Positions 24,385 to 32,040 are shown, numbered from the stretch's first letter. The stretch: DNA of 64,000 nucleotides from an uncultured Chloroflexia bacterium (GCA_963797095.1 CAWCNY010000004.1:416001-480000); one strand, 5' to 3'. Translations and numbers: made by a program. Notes: generated from the letters alone by a model not told the origin.

Positions 24385-26994
24385 CTACCTCGTCACGCAG
24401 TCGGGGAAGAACACCAGCACCACCATCTTGGCTGCTTGCGCCCTGGTCACATTGCTCGATGGATGGAATGTGCCATCCGGATAGCCGTTGATTGCACCCG
24501 CGTTGTACATCGTCTCAACATAGTCGTAGAAGGTCGAGCCTTCGGCAACATCGGAGAAGTGTGGGCCTCCGCCCGTGTTGACCGGTAGGACAGCCGCCAT
24601 CACGACTATCTTCGCCATCTGGCCCCTGGTAGCCTGCCCGCCCGGCCTGAAATACGGCATGCTGGCTGCCCCGCAAGGCTCACCCGGCCCCCCGCACGCG
24701 TAACCTGAAATCACACCGTGCATGTATAACTGCCCGATCCACGGGTAGAAAGTGCTTGCAGGGCTTACATCCTCAAACGACTGCTCACTCACCACATCAT
24801 CAAACCCTGCCGCCATAGCTACGATCTTCGCTATCTGGCCTCGCGTGATCTCGTTGTTGGGCCTGAACGTGCCATCGCTATACCCTCCGATGATACCGTG
24901 ACAGTAGAGACAATGCACAAAAGCATAGTACCAATCGGTTTCCGTCACATCGCTAAAGCTCATCGTGCAGCTGGTAGCTGTAGCCGTAGCAGTTGTAACG
25001 GCCGTATCGGTCGGTAACTCTATCGCGGTGCCTGTAGGCTCAATGACTGGCGTTTCGGTCGCTTCGACTGCCGTCGCTGTGCCGGTGGGGGCAGCGACCG
25101 TATTGGTGGGCGTGCTGGTCGGAGTGTCCGTGGCAACTTCTGTTGGTGTACTTGTCGGCACTGGCGTAGACGTGGGCGTGCTCGTTGATGTATGCGTCGG
25201 AGTGTTCGCAATCGCTGTATTGGTGCCGGTGGGTAGCATTGTATAGGTGGGTGCTACCGTGGGAGTGGTGAGAGGGCAGCTGGCCGTAACGGTCACATTG
25301 ATATCAACGGCGTTTGCCATATTGTCCGCCATATCGAACGCTCTGGCCTTGATCGTGACAGGGCCGCTGGACATTATGTTCCACTCGTACGACCAGTTAT
25401 CGGTCCCTCCTGCCGTGTGCCAGGTGCTGCCATTGTCCACGCTGACTTCCACGCGCTGGAGGCCGCTCCAGTAGTCATGCGCTGTACCTGTAATAGTGAT
25501 CGCGCACCCGTCGATCTCCTGCCCGTTCGCCGGGCTGGTGATCACAGGCACATCCGGATTGTAAGGGTCAAGGCTTGGGTCAGGCTGGAAGGTGTCAGTG
25601 TTCACGGCATTTACAACCAGGCCGAACTTCATGTCGCCCGCGTAGAGGCAGGTACGTTGCAGGCCGCGCAGGTTGCACGGCAGCCAATCCACACCCCACA
25701 CATCGTCCCATGAGCCGCTTGTGTCCGAGTTGAGTTGCTGCCGGAATACCTGGGTGATCGTGGGCGGGTTTTCGATGGTATTTATCAGGTTGCCCCTGAT
25801 GCCCGCTCTGTACCAGGCGTCAAGCAGCAGGTCGAGGCCCGGACCCAGAGGCTTGATAACCATATTATGGGCGCGGTTGGAAGCAGCCACACTGTCACCG
25901 CCTACGATATCGGCCACAAATTGCGGGCTGCTGATATTGGAGATGTCGTACATCTTCACTTTGCCCAGGCTGGGGTTGTTGATGAATTCATCCTGGACGA
26001 ACACGTAGCGGTCGTCGGTTGTCGGCACGGCATGGTGTATCAAGAAACTGCTGGGTCGTATCGAGTCGAGCGGGTTGAGGGGCGTGGGTGTTGCTCCACT
26101 CACAAAAGCGTTCTCATCGAATATCTGAAGGCCGCCGTCCCAGTCGGCCACGTAAACCCTGCCACGCACCACATTTGAGTCGTGCGCGAAACCCGCCGAT
26201 GGGCGCTGGTAGCGGTTGACCTCGAAGATGTTCGCCAGATTATGGATATCCAGGGCTACAATCTTGGTTCCCGACCCCGACTCGCCCGACATGGTAAGCC
26301 AGGCATAGTCTGCGTTGCCGTTTTCGTCAAGCGATACGAAATGCTCATGCACCGTACACCAGTCAGCGCCCGATTTGCGCGTGACGAACTGCGGGTTATA
26401 CGGGTCGTTCACGTTGTACACGAAGAAACCGCAACCTGTGCCGGAGCCACGCATCGTTACCGACAAATACTGGTTGCCGTTCTGCTTCCAGTCGAAAATG
26501 GAAAGCGAAGCGGTGCCGCTCGAAGGGAAGCCCTCGTCGTGGAGGAGCACCGGATTGTAGGGGTCATCAACGTTGTAGATGAAGAACATCCTGTACTCGA
26601 AGCCGGAAAGCCCTACATAGTCATGTCCCTGATATTGCCAGGTGGCGACATCCCCCATCATCCAGTAGGGGGCGCAATTCGTATACGGATAAGCAATGGC
26701 GATGGGTGAGAGGCCTGCGAATGGTGGCTCAGGGATAAGCCCGCTACAGGGGTGCGACAATCCATCTGTATCGGTGGTGATGACCCCCGGCACGCTGGCG
26801 GAAGGTGGGCCCTGGTGAAGTTTATAGGCATCGGGAAATGGTGGGGGATTGAGCAGGTGGCCCGATGAGTCCGTGTCGAAGTTCGCCTGAGATCCTGTCA
26901 TCATGCCACCCAGGCCCGACGAGGCGACCCCCGACATGAGCAAAACGATGAGCACAGCGATGCCCGCCAACACATAGAGACGCCTGAACTTCAC
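24385..26994 (-). CDS. Secreted LVIVD-repeat (choice-of-anchor B-like) protein with Ig-like domain, Thr-rich linker and three SLH domains
   Basis: Signal peptide, YNVxDPYNP repeats, HD...YVADWDGGLQIFD, VEVSVDNGSTW Ig motif, SLH FSDV...GYxDGTF. Confidence 0.8.
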   Translation of the reverse strand: MKFRRLYVLAGIAVLIVLLMSGVASSGLGGMMTGSQANFDTDSSGHLLNPPPFPDAYKLHQGPPSASVPGVITTDTDGLSHPCSGLIPEPPFAGLSPIAIAYPYTNCAPYWMMGDVATWQYQGHDYVGLSGFEYRMFFIYNVDDPYNPVLLHDEGFPSSGTASLSIFDWKQNGNQYLSVTMRGSGTGCGFFVYNVNDPYNPQFVTRKSGADWCTVHEHFVSLDENGNADYAWLTMSGESGSGTKIVALDIHNLANIFEVNRYQRPSAGFAHDSNVVRGRVYVADWDGGLQIFDENAFVSGATPTPLNPLDSIRPSSFLIHHAVPTTDDRYVFVQDEFINNPSLGKVKMYDISNISSPQFVADIVGGDSVAASNRAHNMVIKPLGPGLDLLLDAWYRAGIRGNLINTIENPPTITQVFRQQLNSDTSGSWDDVWGVDWLPCNLRGLQRTCLYAGDMKFGLVVNAVNTDTFQPDPSLDPYNPDVPVITSPANGQEIDGCAITITGTAHDYWSGLQRVEVSVDNGSTWHTAGGTDNWSYEWNIMSSGPVTIKARAFDMADNMANAVDINVTVTASCPLTTPTVAPTYTMLPTGTNTAIANTPTHTSTSTPTSTPVPTSTPTEVATDTPTSTPTNTVAAPTGTATAVEATETPVIEPTGTAIELPTDTAVTTATATATSCTMSFSDVTETDWYYAFVHCLYCHGIIGGYSDGTFRPNNEITRGQIAKIVAMAAGFDDVVSEQSFEDVSPASTFYPWIGQLYMHGVISGYACGGPGEPCGAASMPYFRPGGQATRGQMAKIVVMAAVLPVNTGGGPHFSDVAEGSTFYDYVETMYNAGAINGYPDGTFHPSSNVTRAQAAKMVVLVFFPDCVTR

Positions 26995-27229
26995 GGTTGC
27001 GCTCCTTCTTCTCCTCCCTGCTGAGGATCAACGGAATGAAAAACACTCGGGAAAGACCCATCAAATGGGCGGGCAAGAACGGCTGTGAGGACTGGGTACA
27101 ATTATGCGGGAAACCCTACCTGTAGTCAATAGCGATTTCGACCTTCATCTAACAAGCCTCAAGGTGCCCGATGTACTTGATACCACACCCGATTTTGCAC
27201 ATCCCACAAGTCGGTCGTATAATTCCGGC

Positions 27230-27553
27230 ATGGCGATGATCTCGCGCAACTGGGTACGCATACTTAGCTGGGGGCTTGTGCTTGGCCTCCTGGCCAGCCT
27301 GATCGCCGATTGGGGAGAGTGGGATCGCTTCCTGCTCAACCTGCTCTGGCGCATACTCATAACCATCGCGGGCGGCGTGATCGGGATGATCCTCAACATC
27401 TTCGCCTCAGGCTATGTCAACATGGGTACCAACGTGATCGAGAGCATGGGCATCACCCGCTTCAGCAACGACACCGCCCAGAAAATCGAGAACTCGTTTG
27501 TGTTCGTACTCGCTCTTACCGCCGCTATTCTCTCGATGATCTTCATCACCTGA
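27230..27553 (+). CDS. Small membrane protein (3 TM), hypothetical
   Basis: Hydrophobic helices, coding-like codon use; TTGCAC-17-TATAAT immediately upstream. Confidence 0.65.
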   Translation: MAMISRNWVRILSWGLVLGLLASLIADWGEWDRFLLNLLWRILITIAGGVIGMILNIFASGYVNMGTNVIESMGITRFSNDTAQKIENSFVFVLALTAAILSMIFIT

Positions 27554-27745: not shown

Positions 27746-28887
27746 ACTCACCTTACGCAGCCGAAGTGTTGAATGGTAGACTAAAGGGATGACGAACAAA
27801 GAACTGCTTGATCTGTACACTGACTACCTGATAAGCTCTTTCGGTCTGACCACCGGCACGGGCTTGAGCGCATTGCTGAGTGGAAGCGTGAGCCATGACC
27901 CCATTCAACGCTTCCTCTCCAAGGGAGAGTTCACCTCTGCTGACCTGTGGCATTTTGTCAAGCCTCATGTGCGAGCCGTTGAGCAAGAAGATGGGTGCAT
28001 CATCGTGGACAACTCCATCTCGGAGAAGCCGTACACAGATGAGAACGACATCATCGCCTGGCACTATGACCACTCCAAAGGCACAACGGTCAAGGGGATA
28101 AACTTCCTCTCGGCCTTGTACCATGTGCCTGAGTTGGAGGTGTCGCTGCCCGTGGGTTTTCGGTTGGTAAGAAAGACTGAGCAGTATGTGGACCCTAAAG
28201 ACGGCAAGACCAAGCGGCGTGATCCGGTCAGCAAGAACGAGCACTATCAGGCGTTGTTGCGGCAAGCCAAGCACAACCAAGTGTTGTTCCGCTTCGTGCT
28301 CAACTTCGTGCTCAATGACGTGTGGTATGCCTCGGCGGACAATATGCGCTTCGTCAAAGTCGAATTGGAGGGGGATTTCATCATGCCTCTCAAGACCAAC
28401 CGCAAGGTGGCCTTTACCGAGGGAGACAAACGACAGGGTCGGTACATGCGTGTGGACAGTGTGCCGCTGGAGACGGGTGAGGTGCGGACGGTCTATCTTG
28501 AAGGGATAGACTTCCCCTTGATATTGGTCAAGCAACTCTTCGCAAACGAAGATGGTGGTCAAATCACCCAGTATCTGGTGTGCTCGGATGTGACATGCAC
28601 CTTCGACCAAATCACCACAATCTACCAGAGACGGTGGAACGTGGAAGAGTATCACAAGTCGCTGAAGCAGAATGCTTCTTTGGAACGCTCGCCAACTCAC
28701 ACAGTGTGCACCCAGACCAACCATTTGTTTGCCTCTTTGTGTGGGTACGTCAAGCTCGAATTGTTGAAGCTGTCCAATCATCTCAACCACTTTGCTCTAA
28801 AGAGCACTATCTACTTGCGTGCCATGCAGGTCGCCTTTGATACCTTCCGCCAACTTCAACCTGTTCGCCTGGCTGCGTAAGGTGAGT
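27746..28887 (+). mobile_element. IS701-family-like insertion sequence (~1142 bp)
   Basis: Perfect 17-bp terminal inverted repeats ACTCACCTTACGCAGCC (27746-27762) and GGCTGCGTAAGGTGAGT (28871-28887) enclosing one DDE transposase. Confidence 0.9.
27789..28880 (+). CDS. IS701-family DDE transposase, possibly inactivated
   Basis: LDLYTDYLISSF, SHD, EKPYTDEN, DVWY, YQRRWNVEEYHKSLKQ; 12-bp in-frame duplication at 28292-28315. Confidence 0.88.
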   Translation: MTNKELLDLYTDYLISSFGLTTGTGLSALLSGSVSHDPIQRFLSKGEFTSADLWHFVKPHVRAVEQEDGCIIVDNSISEKPYTDENDIIAWHYDHSKGTTVKGINFLSALYHVPELEVSLPVGFRLVRKTEQYVDPKDGKTKRRDPVSKNEHYQALLRQAKHNQVLFRFVLNFVLNDVWYASADNMRFVKVELEGDFIMPLKTNRKVAFTEGDKRQGRYMRVDSVPLETGEVRTVYLEGIDFPLILVKQLFANEDGGQITQYLVCSDVTCTFDQITTIYQRRWNVEEYHKSLKQNASLERSPTHTVCTQTNHLFASLCGYVKLELLKLSNHLNHFALKSTIYLRAMQVAFDTFRQLQPVRLAA

Positions 28888-28951: not shown

Positions 28952-29491
28952 TTGCTCTTGACCGTGGACAAGCTTCGCATCTACACCATTGGCCACAGCA
29001 ACGCCTCCGCAGGCGCCTTCATTGCCTTGTTGCTAAACAACGGCGTGGAGGCGCTTGTGGACGTGCGTAGCTCACCGTATAGCCACTACACGCCCCATTT
29101 CAATCGCGAGACCCTGGCGGGTATTATTGCGGAAGCCGGAGTAGGCTACCATTATGTGGGCGACTATCTGGGTGGGAGGCCCAAAGACCCCACGTGCTAT
29201 AAGCATGGCAAGGTGCCGACCGGCAAGGTGGACTACTTGAAAGTTGTCGATTACGCCGAAGTCGCCAAGCGTCCCTGGTTCCGGAAAGGCATAGAAAGGC
29301 TGCTGGCGATAGCAGGCGAGCGACATACCGCCATCATGTGCAGCGAGGAAGACCCCCATAGCTGTCATCGCTACCACCTTGTAACCCCGGTGCTTGAACT
29401 AGATGGTATAGAAGTTGTGCATATACGGCACAAGTCGCAGCAAGCCGATATCGATCCCACCCAACCCCAACAGGCAAGCATGTTCGAATGA
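28952..29491 (+). CDS. DUF488 family protein
   Basis: IYTIGHSN, LVDVRSSPYS, LGGRP, MCSEEDPHSCHR; start could be GTG at 28964. Confidence 0.88.
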   Translation: MLLTVDKLRIYTIGHSNASAGAFIALLLNNGVEALVDVRSSPYSHYTPHFNRETLAGIIAEAGVGYHYVGDYLGGRPKDPTCYKHGKVPTGKVDYLKVVDYAEVAKRPWFRKGIERLLAIAGERHTAIMCSEEDPHSCHRYHLVTPVLELDGIEVVHIRHKSQQADIDPTQPQQASMFE

Positions 29492-29928
29492 AACTTTATA
29501 CTATCGGTTTTACCAAGAAGTCTGCCGAACGCTTCTTTTCGTTATTGCGAGACAACGGCGTCCAACTCCTGGCCGATATACGTCTGCATCCAGGCGGCCA
29601 CCTGGCGAGCTTTGCCAAGCAGGACGACCTGCGCTATTTCCTGCGCGCCCTCGCAAACTGCGATTACATCCACCTTCCTCAGCTTGCACCCAGCGACGAA
29701 ATCCTCACCACATACCGCAAAGATAAGAAGTGGCCCCTCTACGTGCAAAGTTTTGAGGCGTTGATGGACGAGCGCGACATGCCGGGGAGCCTGGAAATGA
29801 GCCTCTTTCAGGAGGGCCATACCTGTCTCCTTTGCAGCGAACATACCCCCGACAAATGTCACCGCCGACTGGTAGCCGAGCGTATCGCATCGTACTGGCC
29901 CAACGTAGAAATAGTCCACCTGGTGTAG
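29488..29928 (+). CDS. DUF488 family protein (second subtype)
   Basis: LYTIGFTKKSAERFF, DIRL, LAPS, LCSEHTPDKCHRRLVAE; ATGA overlap with the upstream gene. Confidence 0.88.
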   Translation: MKLYTIGFTKKSAERFFSLLRDNGVQLLADIRLHPGGHLASFAKQDDLRYFLRALANCDYIHLPQLAPSDEILTTYRKDKKWPLYVQSFEALMDERDMPGSLEMSLFQEGHTCLLCSEHTPDKCHRRLVAERIASYWPNVEIVHLV

Positions 29929-29991
29929 CCGCACAACTATCCGCTAACGTCCATCGCAACAAGTGGCACGCAACCAAAATCACCGATTTGC

Positions 29992-30771
29992 ATGTACGCC
30001 CCTGTCACCATCACCGACCTGACCCGTATGCAAGCCGACCACATCTGCGTCGCGGGCTACCTGCGGGATGGCACATGCACCCGCCCTCTGTTCCCCTGGC
30101 ATAAACCCCTCACAGAAAGCTGGGTCTGGCTCAAAGGCCAGGTCGTGATCCGGCCCTTCGCCGAGGTAGAGTTGGACTTACAGGAGCACACGCCACACCC
30201 ACCTCACTCGGAAGATTACCTGGTCAGCCCGACCTACTATCACCTACTGCGCCACCCTGGCACGGATCGAAGGTTGGATCTTCTCCGCAAAATAGAGGAT
30301 CCAAGCGTCGCAAGCATCTTCGGCGCGAAGATCCATGTTGACAATGGCTGGTTCTTGCTTGCGAACACGGGCAGCCGCTCTCTCGGAACGGTCAAACCCG
30401 TCGAGGTCGAAAAGGTTAGCTATGCGCTCCGCAAGAACAGCAGGTGGGACTATCGGATCGCCTTCACGGACGCGTCAGGCGCGCTTTACAGGCTTGCCGT
30501 CACCGATCTGGCCTTCCGGTACTATTTCGATCACGCCCGACTGCATGAAAAGCAGGCGCCCACAAATATCGCCGACCGTATGACCGGTACTCTTCGCGAA
30601 AGTGAGGTGTACCTGCGTATCGGCCTCGCCAGAGGTTGGGATCGCTACCCCGACAGGTGCCATCTGCAAATCACCGGCGTGTACACATTCTCCGATTACC
30701 TGGACGGCAAATGCTTTGCCGATTTCGCCCTCATTAAGATACAATCGGCCAAAGAAGACATACCATTCTAA
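29992..30771 (+). CDS. Dual OB-fold domain-containing protein
   Basis: TRM...HICVAG...RP, HSED, SLG, LAVTDL, YLRIGLAR...CHLQITGV pattern recognised from memory; ends in EDIPF. Confidence 0.7.
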   Translation: MYAPVTITDLTRMQADHICVAGYLRDGTCTRPLFPWHKPLTESWVWLKGQVVIRPFAEVELDLQEHTPHPPHSEDYLVSPTYYHLLRHPGTDRRLDLLRKIEDPSVASIFGAKIHVDNGWFLLANTGSRSLGTVKPVEVEKVSYALRKNSRWDYRIAFTDASGALYRLAVTDLAFRYYFDHARLHEKQAPTNIADRMTGTLRESEVYLRIGLARGWDRYPDRCHLQITGVYTFSDYLDGKCFADFALIKIQSAKEDIPF

Positions 30772-31304
30772 CCGGCCATAGCCAGGGGAAGCACTTCCCT
30801 CAAATCCTGTATATCGTGACCGAAGCACCGGAACCCCGCACCCATCCGCTCGCACTGGCCCCGGTAAATATTGTACGGGTCATCGTCCACGAGTAGCGCG
30901 TCTCCGGCGTCAATGTGGTATCCGTCTCTCCGTGCCATAGTGAGCATCCGCTTCAGCATGTAGTCTTTGTCCGAATGCCACTCACCGACCAGGTAATCCA
31001 TAAGCGGCATAGCCCCAAACGCTTCCAGGATTCGCCGCACATTCCCTTCGTGATTATAGCTGATAACACCCGTCAGCACGCCGCGATCCTTCAGCGTCCG
31101 CAACACATCGGGAACTTCGGGGCGCAAAGTGAAAAGCGCCCCATCGTCTCGGCGGACGAGGAGCGCATCTTCATTATTCGCTACAGGTTCATAGGTGAAA
31201 TCGGGCCAACCCGCCGCATCGGTCGGCGTGCGGTCGGAGAGATTGAGGCCGCTGGTGAGCATCCAGAGCGTCTCATCGCCATCAAACGCAACCAATCTAT
31301 ACAT
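30768..31304 (-). CDS. HAD-superfamily phosphatase (MDP-1-like, subfamily IIIC)
   Basis: FDGDETLW motif I, ISYN motif II, K, LVDD motif IV. Confidence 0.8.
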   Translation of the reverse strand: MYRLVAFDGDETLWMLTSGLNLSDRTPTDAAGWPDFTYEPVANNEDALLVRRDDGALFTLRPEVPDVLRTLKDRGVLTGVISYNHEGNVRRILEAFGAMPLMDYLVGEWHSDKDYMLKRMLTMARRDGYHIDAGDALLVDDDPYNIYRGQCERMGAGFRCFGHDIQDLREVLPLAMAG

Positions 31305-31369
31305 AAATGTCAGGCAAGAGCATTTACGCTTTAGTATCTTTATTGCAGCCCATCACGGCCCGGTATAGC

Positions 31370-31669
31370 TTACCGGTAGCGGAACGTAATACGACCCTTG
31401 CTCAAATCGTAAGGGGAAAGCTCAACGAGCACGCGGTCGCCCGGCACGATCCTGATATAGTTCGTGCGCATTTTGCCCGAAATATGCCCCAGCACCTTGA
31501 TCCCGTTCTCAAGCTCTATATTGAAAAGGGCATTGGGCAGTGCATCAAGTACGGTGCCGTCCATTGTAATAACATCGTCGCGTGTGCGTCGCGGCCCTAC
31601 AGGGGCAGTCGCGTTCGCCGGGTTTCTGTTAGTCTGTTGTTTCTTAGGATAATATGTCTTCTTCTTCAT
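31370..31669 (-). CDS. infA: Translation initiation factor IF-1 with basic N-terminal extension
   Basis: [18 protein letters not shown]...[39 protein letters not shown]. Confidence 0.95.
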
Positions 31670-31705
31670 GCGGTACGCATTTACCTCCAAAATAGGTGCA
31701 TCAAC

Positions 31706-31740
31706 AAAAAAGCCGAGTAGCAGTCTTGCGCTAACCCGGC
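31706..31740 (-). terminator. Intrinsic terminator inside the infA 5-prime leader
   Basis: Minus strand GCCGGGTTAGC-GCAAGACT-GCTACTCGGC followed by T6. Confidence 0.7.
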
Positions 31741-31884
31741 CCTGTGTTCTGTACCCATGCAAAACGCCCCCTAATTGGGCGGTTGCTTCGATACTCTCTT
31801 GAGATAGCAGGCGGAACGCATTGGCATCCTTTCCTCTAGCTCTTGACGCACAGGGCGGATTCGTATTGCTACACGTAAATTATA
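31706..31884 (-). promoter_or_regulatory. Structured attenuator/riboswitch-like leader of infA
   Basis: TATAAT at 31884-31879; GCCCTGTG/CACAGGGC outer stem (31856-31849 with 31746-31739) abutting the terminator. Confidence 0.55.
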
Positions 31885-32040
31885 CACCCTACACGCACGA
31901 ATTACAATACGACTTGCGTCGTATATCTGAGCCGCACGCACACAACGAACGCCTTATAAGGGCAGCCACGCGGCGTAGCCCTACTACAACTACCCATCTG
32001 GTGTATATTATCCAGAGTAATCACCAGGGAGGTATCAATT

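Follow-up and report, generated by a model that had tools for sequence, protein, structure and literature searches.

A stretch of 64,000 nucleotides (nt) from an uncultured Chloroflexia bacterium (GCA_963797095.1 CAWCNY010000004.1:416001-480000), referred to below as the window and used as a whole for all coordinates that carry no other prefix, holds at 28952-30771 three genes on the + strand: a DUF488 gene (gene 1), a DUF488-N3a gene (gene 2) and a DuOB, or dual-OB, gene (gene 3). Comparison with related genomes identifies this locus as an intact member of a conserved accessory three-gene module of the same composition. Two conserved short motifs and several natural fusions would place the module at the sliding clamp, within the SSB interactome and next to RecQ. 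We give an even chance to the proposal that the module is tethered to the replisome or to DNA gaps and there processes nucleic-acid ends or adducts. That the gene 1 protein binds the clamp, a proposal drawn chiefly from the conservation of its tail, we rate higher than this mechanism taken as a whole.

DUF488 is a large family for which we know of no experimentally established function, and both DuOB and PDC-M45, the candidate system that comprises these genes, exist solely as computational entries. Where could experiments begin? The motifs and fusions described here narrow this problem of function to a short list of direct experiments. If the proposal is true, the clamp and SSB hubs would each acquire a new client, a single protein could be said to borrow the SSB tip, and DUF488 would gain its first biochemical foothold.

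Conservation and linkage of the three genes

One genome per species was scanned with a DuOB alignment, which yielded 43 loci. A DuOB open reading frame (ORF) was matched in 42 of them, and the 37 with at least 1.1 kb of upstream DNA were evaluable for linkage (L012, from a genome flagged as unpublished, contributes one row to the locus counts and to alignments A2 and A4; none of the claims rests on it). Both DUF488 genes lie beside DuOB in 34 of these 37 loci; the exceptions are L005 and L017, which have gene 1 only, and L014, which has neither DUF488 gene. Orientation is shared with DuOB in 32 of the 34 and divergent in L021 and L027. No fixed fourth gene was found among 150 flanking ORFs of 41 loci. 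A preliminary description of the locus, made from the sequence of the window, had suggested that the trio may be a stand-alone module and would have been refuted had the genes not co-occurred elsewhere; the survey agrees with it on both counts.

In six loci (L009, L010, L011, L019, L022 and L044) a single ORF of 331-390 codons encodes both DUF488 proteins, and the same kind of fusion is seen in L079 (377 amino acids, aa), the sole copy from a viral contig. Since several lineages join both proteins in one chain, the fusions argue that the two putative enzymes act as a pair.

In the window, genes 1 and 2 are coupled by an ATGA overlap and genes 2 and 3 are spaced by 63 nt (Table 1). The start of gene 1 is ambiguous within 12 nt (TTG at 28952, TTG at 28958 or GTG at 28964), and its database copy has 177 aa. 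Co-orientation, the ATGA overlap, the C-x-E-x5-C-H-R signature of both DUF488 proteins and the EDIPF end of the OB-like protein had been named in the preliminary description and are found as it stated; its assignments to DUF488 and to a dual-OB family also hold, since profile searches place all three genes above the Pfam gathering cut-offs. Against DUF488 (PF04343; cut-off 22.2 bits), gene 1 scores 83 bits and gene 2 80.4 bits (2.2e-22). Gene 2 also exceeds the cut-off of 27 bits for the DUF488-N3a subclade (PF22751) with 45.1 bits (1.4e-11); gene 1, at 15 bits, falls below it. DuOB (PF22557; cut-off 27 bits) is matched by gene 3 with 42.4 bits over profile positions 12-210 of 210. NCBIfam returned no match for any of the three genes, and in PHROGs gene 2 alone matches, weakly, one family of unknown function.

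Could gene 1 belong to the 'inactive' subclade DUF488-N3i (PF22752; cut-off 27 bits), which has lost the catalytic residues? This assignment was rejected: the profile gives no match to gene 1 at E <= 10, and C130, C138, H139 and R140 are all kept. By its sequence gene 1 is a generic DUF488 protein with its cysteines retained, neither N3a nor N3i.

Table 1. Features of the DUF488/DUF488-N3a/DuOB locus in the window, with one neighbouring element.
Feature	Position	Strand	Basis
Gene 1: DUF488 protein, 179 aa	28952..29491	+	ORF; Pfam DUF488 3.4e-23; PADLOC PDC-M45B 9.3e-46
Gene 1, putative active-site loop CSEEDPHSCHR, residues 130-140	29339..29371	+	Translation; alignment; model
Gene 1, QASMF, residues 174-178, candidate sliding-clamp-binding motif	29471..29485	+	Translation; homologue tails
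ATGA, overlap of gene 1 stop and gene 2 start (translational coupling)	29488..29491	+	Sequence
Gene 2: DUF488 protein, N3a ('active') subclade, 146 aa, without tail	29488..29928	+	Pfam; PADLOC PDC-M45C 2.3e-52
Gene 2, putative active-site loop CSEHTPDKCHR, residues 116-126	29833..29865	+	Translation
Gene 3: DuOB (dual OB) protein, 259 aa	29992..30771	+	Pfam DuOB 1e-10; model pLDDT 90
Gene 3, EDIPF, last five residues, SSB-like acidic tip	30754..30768	+	Translation; homologue tails
IS701-family element (context, not part of the module)	27746..28887	+	17-nt perfect inverted repeats 27746-27762 and 28871-28887; transposase NF049921, 9.9e-95

A conserved clamp-type motif lies close to the end of the gene 1 protein

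The pentapeptide QL[SD]LF is the consensus binding motif of bacterial beta-clamp clients. Sliding-clamp clients that carry it were reportedly described by Dalrymple et al. in 2001 and in later work; to our knowledge no DUF488 protein is counted among them. The folded core of gene 1 ends near residue 158, after which an alignment of 33 orthologues shows a linker variable in both length and sequence. Despite this variation, Q174, the first residue of QASMF, is invariant in all 33. In the window protein the motif is penultimate rather than terminal, one residue (E) following it. The tail proposed in the preliminary description is thus present, in a segment modelled with low confidence, if not at the very end of the chain.

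Tails were surveyed in the best 120 database homologues of each protein, gene 1 and DuOB. The pattern Q-x-x-[LMF]-[FL] falls within the last 14 residues of 95 of the 120 gene 1 homologues, at most one residue from the end in 80, QLSLF (26) and QMSLF (15) being the most frequent forms. Near variants (QLSLI, QLALPG, QASLPL) are seen in several of the 25 homologues without a match. As controls, the remaining 20,533 residues of the gene 1 homologues contain 9 matches to this pattern, and the 120 DuOB tails contain none. Among unfused gene 1 copies taken from genomes, 31 of 32 have a clamp-type motif. The two archaeal copies end in QKSLFDFV and QATLLGY, which we read as resembling the PCNA-interacting peptide (PIP) box. 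The clamp-like tail is thus conserved in homologues, a point on which the preliminary description could have been refuted. Gene 2 homologues end in ...V/IHL(V).

How rare is such an end within one proteome? The 6.02-Mb genome has 20,494 stop-to-stop frames that are 100 codons or longer; gene 1 and one other are the only two of these with Q[LMA][SDTG][LM]F at most one residue from the end. The other is a frame of 117 codons on contig C5 of the same genome (G000), ending at 310345 on the - strand, with the C-terminus ...QASLFG.

In the predicted structure of gene 1 (mean predicted local distance difference test, pLDDT, 87), residues 162-164 and 177-179 fall below 50, as expected of a disordered tail. 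When gene 1 was modelled with two copies of the clamp from the same genome, the interface score ipSAE was 0.56 (runs 0.40, 0.56 and 0.56), and none of the three controls exceeded 0.00; the runs have at least 56% of contacts in common, and partner pLDDT is at least 79. In calibration, 58 of 80 solved complexes and 2 of 110 mismatched pairs passed the mark; those that passed with ipSAE <= 0.60 were only 7 of the 80 and both passing mismatches. The gene 1/clamp job used its own alignments and is unlike the calibration set. A predicted complex with DnaN had been named as a check in the preliminary description; the prediction passes its three controls and lends weak support to clamp binding. Like known clients, which bear QL[SD]LF or the archaeal-eukaryotic PIP box, gene 1 presents a C-terminal Q-x-x-[LM]-F after a disordered linker, QLSLF being its commonest form, with PIP-like ends in archaea; unlike them, it is a candidate, by motif conservation and one weak prediction.

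DuOB models as a tandem OB-fold protein with an SSB-like tip in part of the family

The DuOB model (predicted TM-score, pTM, 0.88) consists of two beta-barrels, an N-terminal one at about residues 1-102 and a C-terminal one at about 100-235. Each barrel matches OB domains of RPA, BRCA2, TEBP and Teb1, so that the dual-OB architecture suggested earlier from sequence is recovered in the model. Foldseek ranks POT1 first (E 2.1e-4), followed by HIN-200, CST, RPA and LEF-3, and in VIA comparison the single OB folds of BRCA2, TEBP and RPA70 reach Z 7.1 at most, both sets of scores being modest. No sequence relative of DuOB was found in the PDB, where the only matches, to uS4, were insignificant. DuOB thus has its best structural matches in HIN-200 proteins and in tandem-OB binders of DNA ends and junctions (POT1, RPA70, CST, TEBP), which cover both of its OB folds, but it differs from them in its low identity (7-15%), in the modest scores and in invariant polar and Cys/His residues of its own. 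In alignment A1, which spans both OB folds, C19, H72 and C241 are invariant and C223 is nearly so; a metal site is conceivable.

The C-terminal tip of bacterial SSB (...DDDIPF) is a hub that recruits RecQ, ExoI, PriA and other enzymes. The two SSBs of the host genome end in DVDDIPF and DIDDIPF, and DuOB ends in KEDIPF. Ends of the form [DE][DE][IVL]PF occur in 3 of the 20,494 frames of this genome, namely the two SSBs and gene 3. DuOB itself falls outside the SSB family: when the whole genome was searched with PF00436, the two SSB genes, on contigs C5 and C4, were the only matches, and gene 3 was not among them.

Among the 120 DuOB homologues, 49-50 end in [DE][VIL]PF (50 if P0114, which the script sorted as 'other', is included). 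This count takes in some ends with another residue at -4 or -3. All of the 49 have PF as their last two residues; D or E stands at -4 in 45 of them, and at -3 V is found in 26, I in 11 and L in 8. The preliminary description had named conservation of DIPF among homologues as a test; the pattern recurs, in some four of ten. The other tails comprise 25 that resemble an amphipathic helix (GFLAKLSRFF-like), 26 with almost no tail, 6 acidic ones of ELL type and 13 of other kinds. In a small sample of five genomes, DuOB has the same -3 residue as one or more of the host SSBs in four (I in G000 and G042, V in G043 and G044) and differs in G040. DuOB resembles bacterial SSB in being an OB-fold protein with a variable linker and an acidic [IVL]PF tip nearly identical to those of the host SSBs; it differs in having two different OB folds per chain, a short linker, and a tip that is missing in most homologues.

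The helix-type tail, DG[FL][LI]AKL[AS]RF[FL].., is found in L009, L010, L011, L019 and L044 as well as in the 25 database homologues, and among genome loci it was seen only together with fused DUF488 genes. We considered it as a substitute for the clamp motif lost in the fusions and dropped the idea, the tail looking more like the amphipathic membrane-targeting helix of MinD.

In some lineages DuOB is fused to domains of the RecQ family. L029:5890-9576 encodes DuOB followed by TPR and a RecQ-type helicase (DEAD/Helicase_C/RecQ_Zn_bind), and L037:5371-9576 resembles it in sequence. L038:6001-7803 joins DuOB to RQC, HRDC and HEAT domains, and protein P0121 to RQC and HRDC; P0121 is the only fused form returned by a protein search for longer homologues, the sensitivity of which was low. 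These fusions fit an SSB-like tip that recruits RecQ-type partners. The tip of E. coli SSB is reported to dock on the winged-helix domain of RecQ; by analogy, an SSB tip on a free DuOB and the fusion of DuOB to RecQ modules would be two routes to one link. Three further DuOB proteins (L028:1374-2978, L039:2929-3942 and L041:57-719) share another C-terminal extension, YPRAY..W..ED..L....G....LA..F.R...AI..RL..LGL, with weak Myb/HTH-like Pfam matches below the cut-offs.

A putative Cys-phosphatase-like fold in the DUF488 protein of gene 1

C130, E132, E133, P135, C138, H139 and R140 of gene 1 are invariant in 33 of 33 sequences. In a joint alignment of the two paralogues the first C, the E and C-H-R never vary, so that both DUF488 proteins hold two invariant cysteines, eight residues apart. 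(Alignment A4 paired gene 1 with the C-terminal half of the fused proteins; it was therefore used for the comparison of paralogues and not for folding.)

In the gene 1 model, strand 126-130 ends at C130 and is followed by a loop and by helix 139-150, which opens at C138-H-R140. The best VIA matches are the N-domains of tetrapyrrole and diphthine methylases (CbiF, Z 9.5; diphthine synthase, 9.0), and among Cys phosphatases the dual-specificity phosphatase (DSP) domain of laforin (8.4), KAP (7.8), the baculovirus RNA 5'-phosphatase BVP (7.4) and PIR1 (6.2). No solved structure related by sequence to gene 1 was found. In the model, then, DUF488 takes a putative Rossmannoid fold like that of protein tyrosine phosphatases (PTP) and DSPs, with a cysteine at a strand end, and its topology fits the Cys phosphatase fold. 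The preliminary description had presented DUF488 as a Cys-dependent, rhodanese/phosphatase-like fold, with which the topology of the model is compatible. The likeness to PTP/DSP-fold phosphatases such as BVP and PIR1, and to the methylase N-domains, lies in the strand that ends in Cys, the loop and the Arg-initiated helix, at Z 7.4-9.5 (PIR1, 6.2).

Relation to catalogued families

The gene set is not new: it is catalogued, uncharacterised, as the Pfam families DuOB and DUF488-N3a and as the PADLOC candidate PDC-M45. In PADLOC-DB v2, gene 1 is matched by PDC-M45B and gene 2 by PDC-M45C (Table 1), and PDC-M45A matches the DuOB orthologue of Leptolinea tardivitalis (L026) at 8.7e-6. The DuOB of the window has no match to PDC-M45A at E <= 0.1. 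PDC-M45 thus corresponds to DuOB plus two DUF488 proteins, because its A, B and C models match a DuOB orthologue, gene 1 and gene 2. The gene sets appear to be the same; the differences are that the A model misses the DuOB of the window, that the neighbourhoods surveyed here are mostly not defence islands, and that PDC-M45 is itself only a candidate.

In the literature searched, no paper was found for 'PDC-M45' or for DUF488 together with 'dual OB', and the papers listed as naming DUF488 do not, to judge by their titles and abstracts, concern its biochemistry. Nor did any link DUF488 to the sliding clamp; the match listed was a paper on ParB, by its subject concerned with the ParB clamp, in which a DUF488-HTH fusion is mentioned. 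The Pfam families DuOB and DUF488-N3a/N3i were, we believe, built from the work of Burroughs and Aravind in 2023. The abstract of that work is said to place DUF488 in the rhodanese-phosphatase superfamily (RapZ-C-DUF488-DUF4326 clade) and to predict DNA-end processing in conflict systems; the paper or its supplements may already describe the tails or the RecQ fusions. The window agrees with the DUF488-N3/DuOB systems in having N3a on gene 2 and DuOB on gene 3, and the reported prediction of DNA-end processing agrees with the Cys-phosphatase fold matches; it differs in gene 1, a generic DUF488 protein with cysteines that is of neither N3 type.

A proposed mechanism and its alternatives

How might these parts work together? 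The two DUF488 proteins would be paralogous enzymes of Cys-phosphatase fold, working as a pair. The C-terminal motif of gene 1 (consensus QLSLF, PIP-like in archaea) would tether this pair to clamps at primer-template junctions. DuOB would bind single-stranded DNA, or junctions of single- and double-stranded DNA, with its tandem OB folds; in the clade of the window its ...EDIPF tip would copy the SSB tip and thereby dock onto SSB partners, chiefly RecQ-type helicases, at the sites that SSB uses, and other lineages would hard-wire the link to RecQ as DuOB-RecQ or DuOB-RQC-HRDC fusions. So placed, the trio would process a phosphate-bearing nucleic-acid end or a sugar-phosphate adduct at forks or gaps. 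In this scheme the contacts with the clamp and with SSB partners, the pairing of the enzymes and their substrate are what we infer from the observed linkage, fusions, motif conservation, folds and distribution, and the chemistry is read from the modelled fold alone. We put forward tentatively, and with some doubt, that it represents a previously unrecognised pathway of end or adduct processing associated with forks and gaps in bacteria and archaea, in which a Cys-phosphatase-fold pair is delivered by a clamp motif and by an SSB-tip mimic, carried by a POT1/RPA-like dual-OB subunit, that engages RecQ-type helicases. The substrates of such a pathway might be, for example, 5'-triphosphate or 3'-phosphate ends or ribose-phosphate adducts. 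The preliminary description had likewise proposed that the trio could trap or process lesions such as abasic sites or ADP-ribosylated bases, or act on phage DNA.

Several observations weigh against the tethered-processing mechanism. The fold matches of the gene 1 model are middling, and Foldseek returned none at E <= 0.001. Gene 1 differs from classical Cys phosphatases in its loop, which is C-x9-R with a second invariant Cys instead of C-x5-R. The sole complex prediction is weak, and as clamp-peptide complexes have already been solved, it may have passed because it resembles known structures. The Q of the clamp motif is lost from the linker in 6 of the 7 fused DUF488 forms (...LEVGLFDV...; in L022 ...IEAAPFSV...); the fused form of L079 retains an internal QQLHLF there. 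About 6 in 10 DuOB homologues lack the SSB-like tip, which is therefore not essential to the module; on sequence comparison the tip is genuine but confined to part of the family. The 150 flanking ORFs of 41 loci are mostly unrelated housekeeping genes and uninformative on function, and PADLOC files the set as a candidate for phage defence. The distribution is patchy as well: at a threshold of E <= 1e-10, 14 of the 40 genomes examined from the order carry DuOB, as do 8 of 25 others from the genus; among genomes at least 90% complete, 6 of 11 do. Some copies are broken, gene 2 being split in L006 and DuOB in L035, L036 and L045, and G033 (C5:204437-205211) has a TGA inside DuOB; these split and interrupted copies look like decay. 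Patchiness and broken copies fit a dispensable accessory or conflict gene as well as they fit repair.

Could the module then serve in defence? As PDC-M45 proper it would act against phages or mobile elements, docking through the clamp and SSB partners on replicating foreign DNA, or sensing it, where the DUF488 pair would damage or mark the DNA or abort infection. Such a role would overlap the mechanism proposed above and differ from it in biology, and we consider it rather unlikely. Patchy occurrence within genus and order, pseudogenes and the PADLOC listing, with strong matches of candidate models to genes 1 and 2 and that of the A model to the L026 DuOB, favour a role in conflict. So do a copy on a putative viral contig and neighbours of defence type in individual loci: PIN/MazE and a NERD-UvrD-like helicase (L032), PIN (L033), DNA methylases (L010, L039), Schlafen/AlbA_2 (L038) and WYL with a DEDDh exonuclease (L006). 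However, the 41 neighbourhoods are mostly metabolic or housekeeping in content and are not defence islands, the trio includes no nuclease, toxin or other effector, and 'PDC-M45' is, as said, absent from the literature searched. The module also occupies the same chromosomal place in the window and five related loci, with a haloacid dehalogenase (HAD) hydrolase gene downstream and the gene for initiation factor IF-1 in four of the five, which speaks for inheritance with repeated loss and not for mobility; searches of 72,556 plasmids and 50,697 phage records gave no match, and the viral contigs yielded a single locus. Maintenance is favoured by the housekeeping neighbourhoods, by the constant chromosomal position and by the absence of an effector. 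By these comparisons the module is accessory and often lost, and it is not visibly mobile.

The remaining alternatives concern the tails and the cysteines. QxSLF and DIPF might be internal glue that binds partner subunits (DuOB or DUF488-N3a), their likeness to hub motifs being convergent. Fused forms do lose the Q of the clamp motif, and the helix-type DuOB tail accompanies five of the six fused-DUF488 genome loci (all except L022), the PF tip none of the six. Yet we find this explanation improbable: the commonest gene 1 tail is exactly QLSLF, the consensus bacterial clamp motif, and the archaeal copies are PIP-like; the DuOB tip tracks that of the host SSBs and is shared in the genome with them alone; the domains fused to DuOB belong to the RecQ family (helicase core or RQC-HRDC), and E. 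coli SSB is, as noted above, reported to dock on the winged-helix domain of RecQ; and the clamp prediction passed its controls, if weakly. Slightly less probable still is co-replicative modification or sulfur transfer, in which the two cysteines would serve as a rhodanese-type persulfide relay or transfer a group to DNA behind the fork, with the clamp giving access. The invariant cysteine pair of both DUF488 proteins would suit such a relay, a cysteine-desulfurase-like gene overlaps the start of gene 1 in L030, and the abstract of Burroughs and Aravind reportedly speaks of nucleic-acid-modifying systems. This link to a desulfurase is, however, confined to one of 41 neighbourhoods, and its models are also hit by housekeeping IscS-type enzymes; across the 41 neighbourhoods no modification donor, be it a methyltransferase, a glycosyltransferase or another, recurs consistently; and after the tetrapyrrole-methylase-like domains the best fold matches of gene 1 are phosphatases, not rhodaneses.

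Distribution and genomic surroundings

The 43 DuOB loci come mostly from Chloroflexota and also from Methanotrichaceae, Altiarchaeales, Bathyarchaeia, Fermentithermobacillaceae and Poribacteria. The archaeal copies adjoin genes for family B DNA polymerase (PolB), UvrD and Schlafen/AlbA_2 in L038 and HerA-, NurA- and SMC/Rad50-like genes in L041. Repair-type neighbours elsewhere include UvrD (L032), a DNA alkylation repair enzyme (L035) and the DEDDh exonuclease with WYL (L006). ORFs of about 105-110 aa precede gene 1 in several loci; they have no Pfam or PADLOC match, except in L006 (WYL domain). The desulfurase-like gene at L030:2040-3293 encodes a class-V aminotransferase (DndA/SspA models, about 1e-139), and its stop overlaps the start of gene 1 in this one locus. 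The viral-contig copy (L079:3847-5777, on an 86-kb IMG/VR contig) consists of the fused DUF488 gene followed by DuOB without a PF tip, beside an ORF of 1267 aa.

The IS701-family element in Table 1 lies 65-77 nt upstream of gene 1 and is missing from the collinear locus L004. In L004 a small ORF equivalent to 27104-27553 of the window, a small membrane-protein gene, directly precedes gene 1; the window ORF has no Pfam or PADLOC match. The insertion may separate gene 1 from its native promoter or otherwise affect expression of the trio, and a simple promoter scan gave nothing useful. Downstream of the trio, on the opposite strand, lie a HAD-type phosphatase-like gene and a gene that we read by eye as IF-1. 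The HAD-type gene is also present in L004, L007 and L018, and the IF-1 gene in L007, L016, L018 and L036. Positions 29991-31911 are collinear with L004. Further upstream, at 24385-26994 on the - strand, an ORF of 869 aa is in parts collinear with L004, whose large flanking ORF in the equivalent region has SLH and bacterial Ig domains. Among the sequencing runs listed for the stretch none is of RNA; three are soil-metagenome DNA runs from one study, two of which contain part of it.

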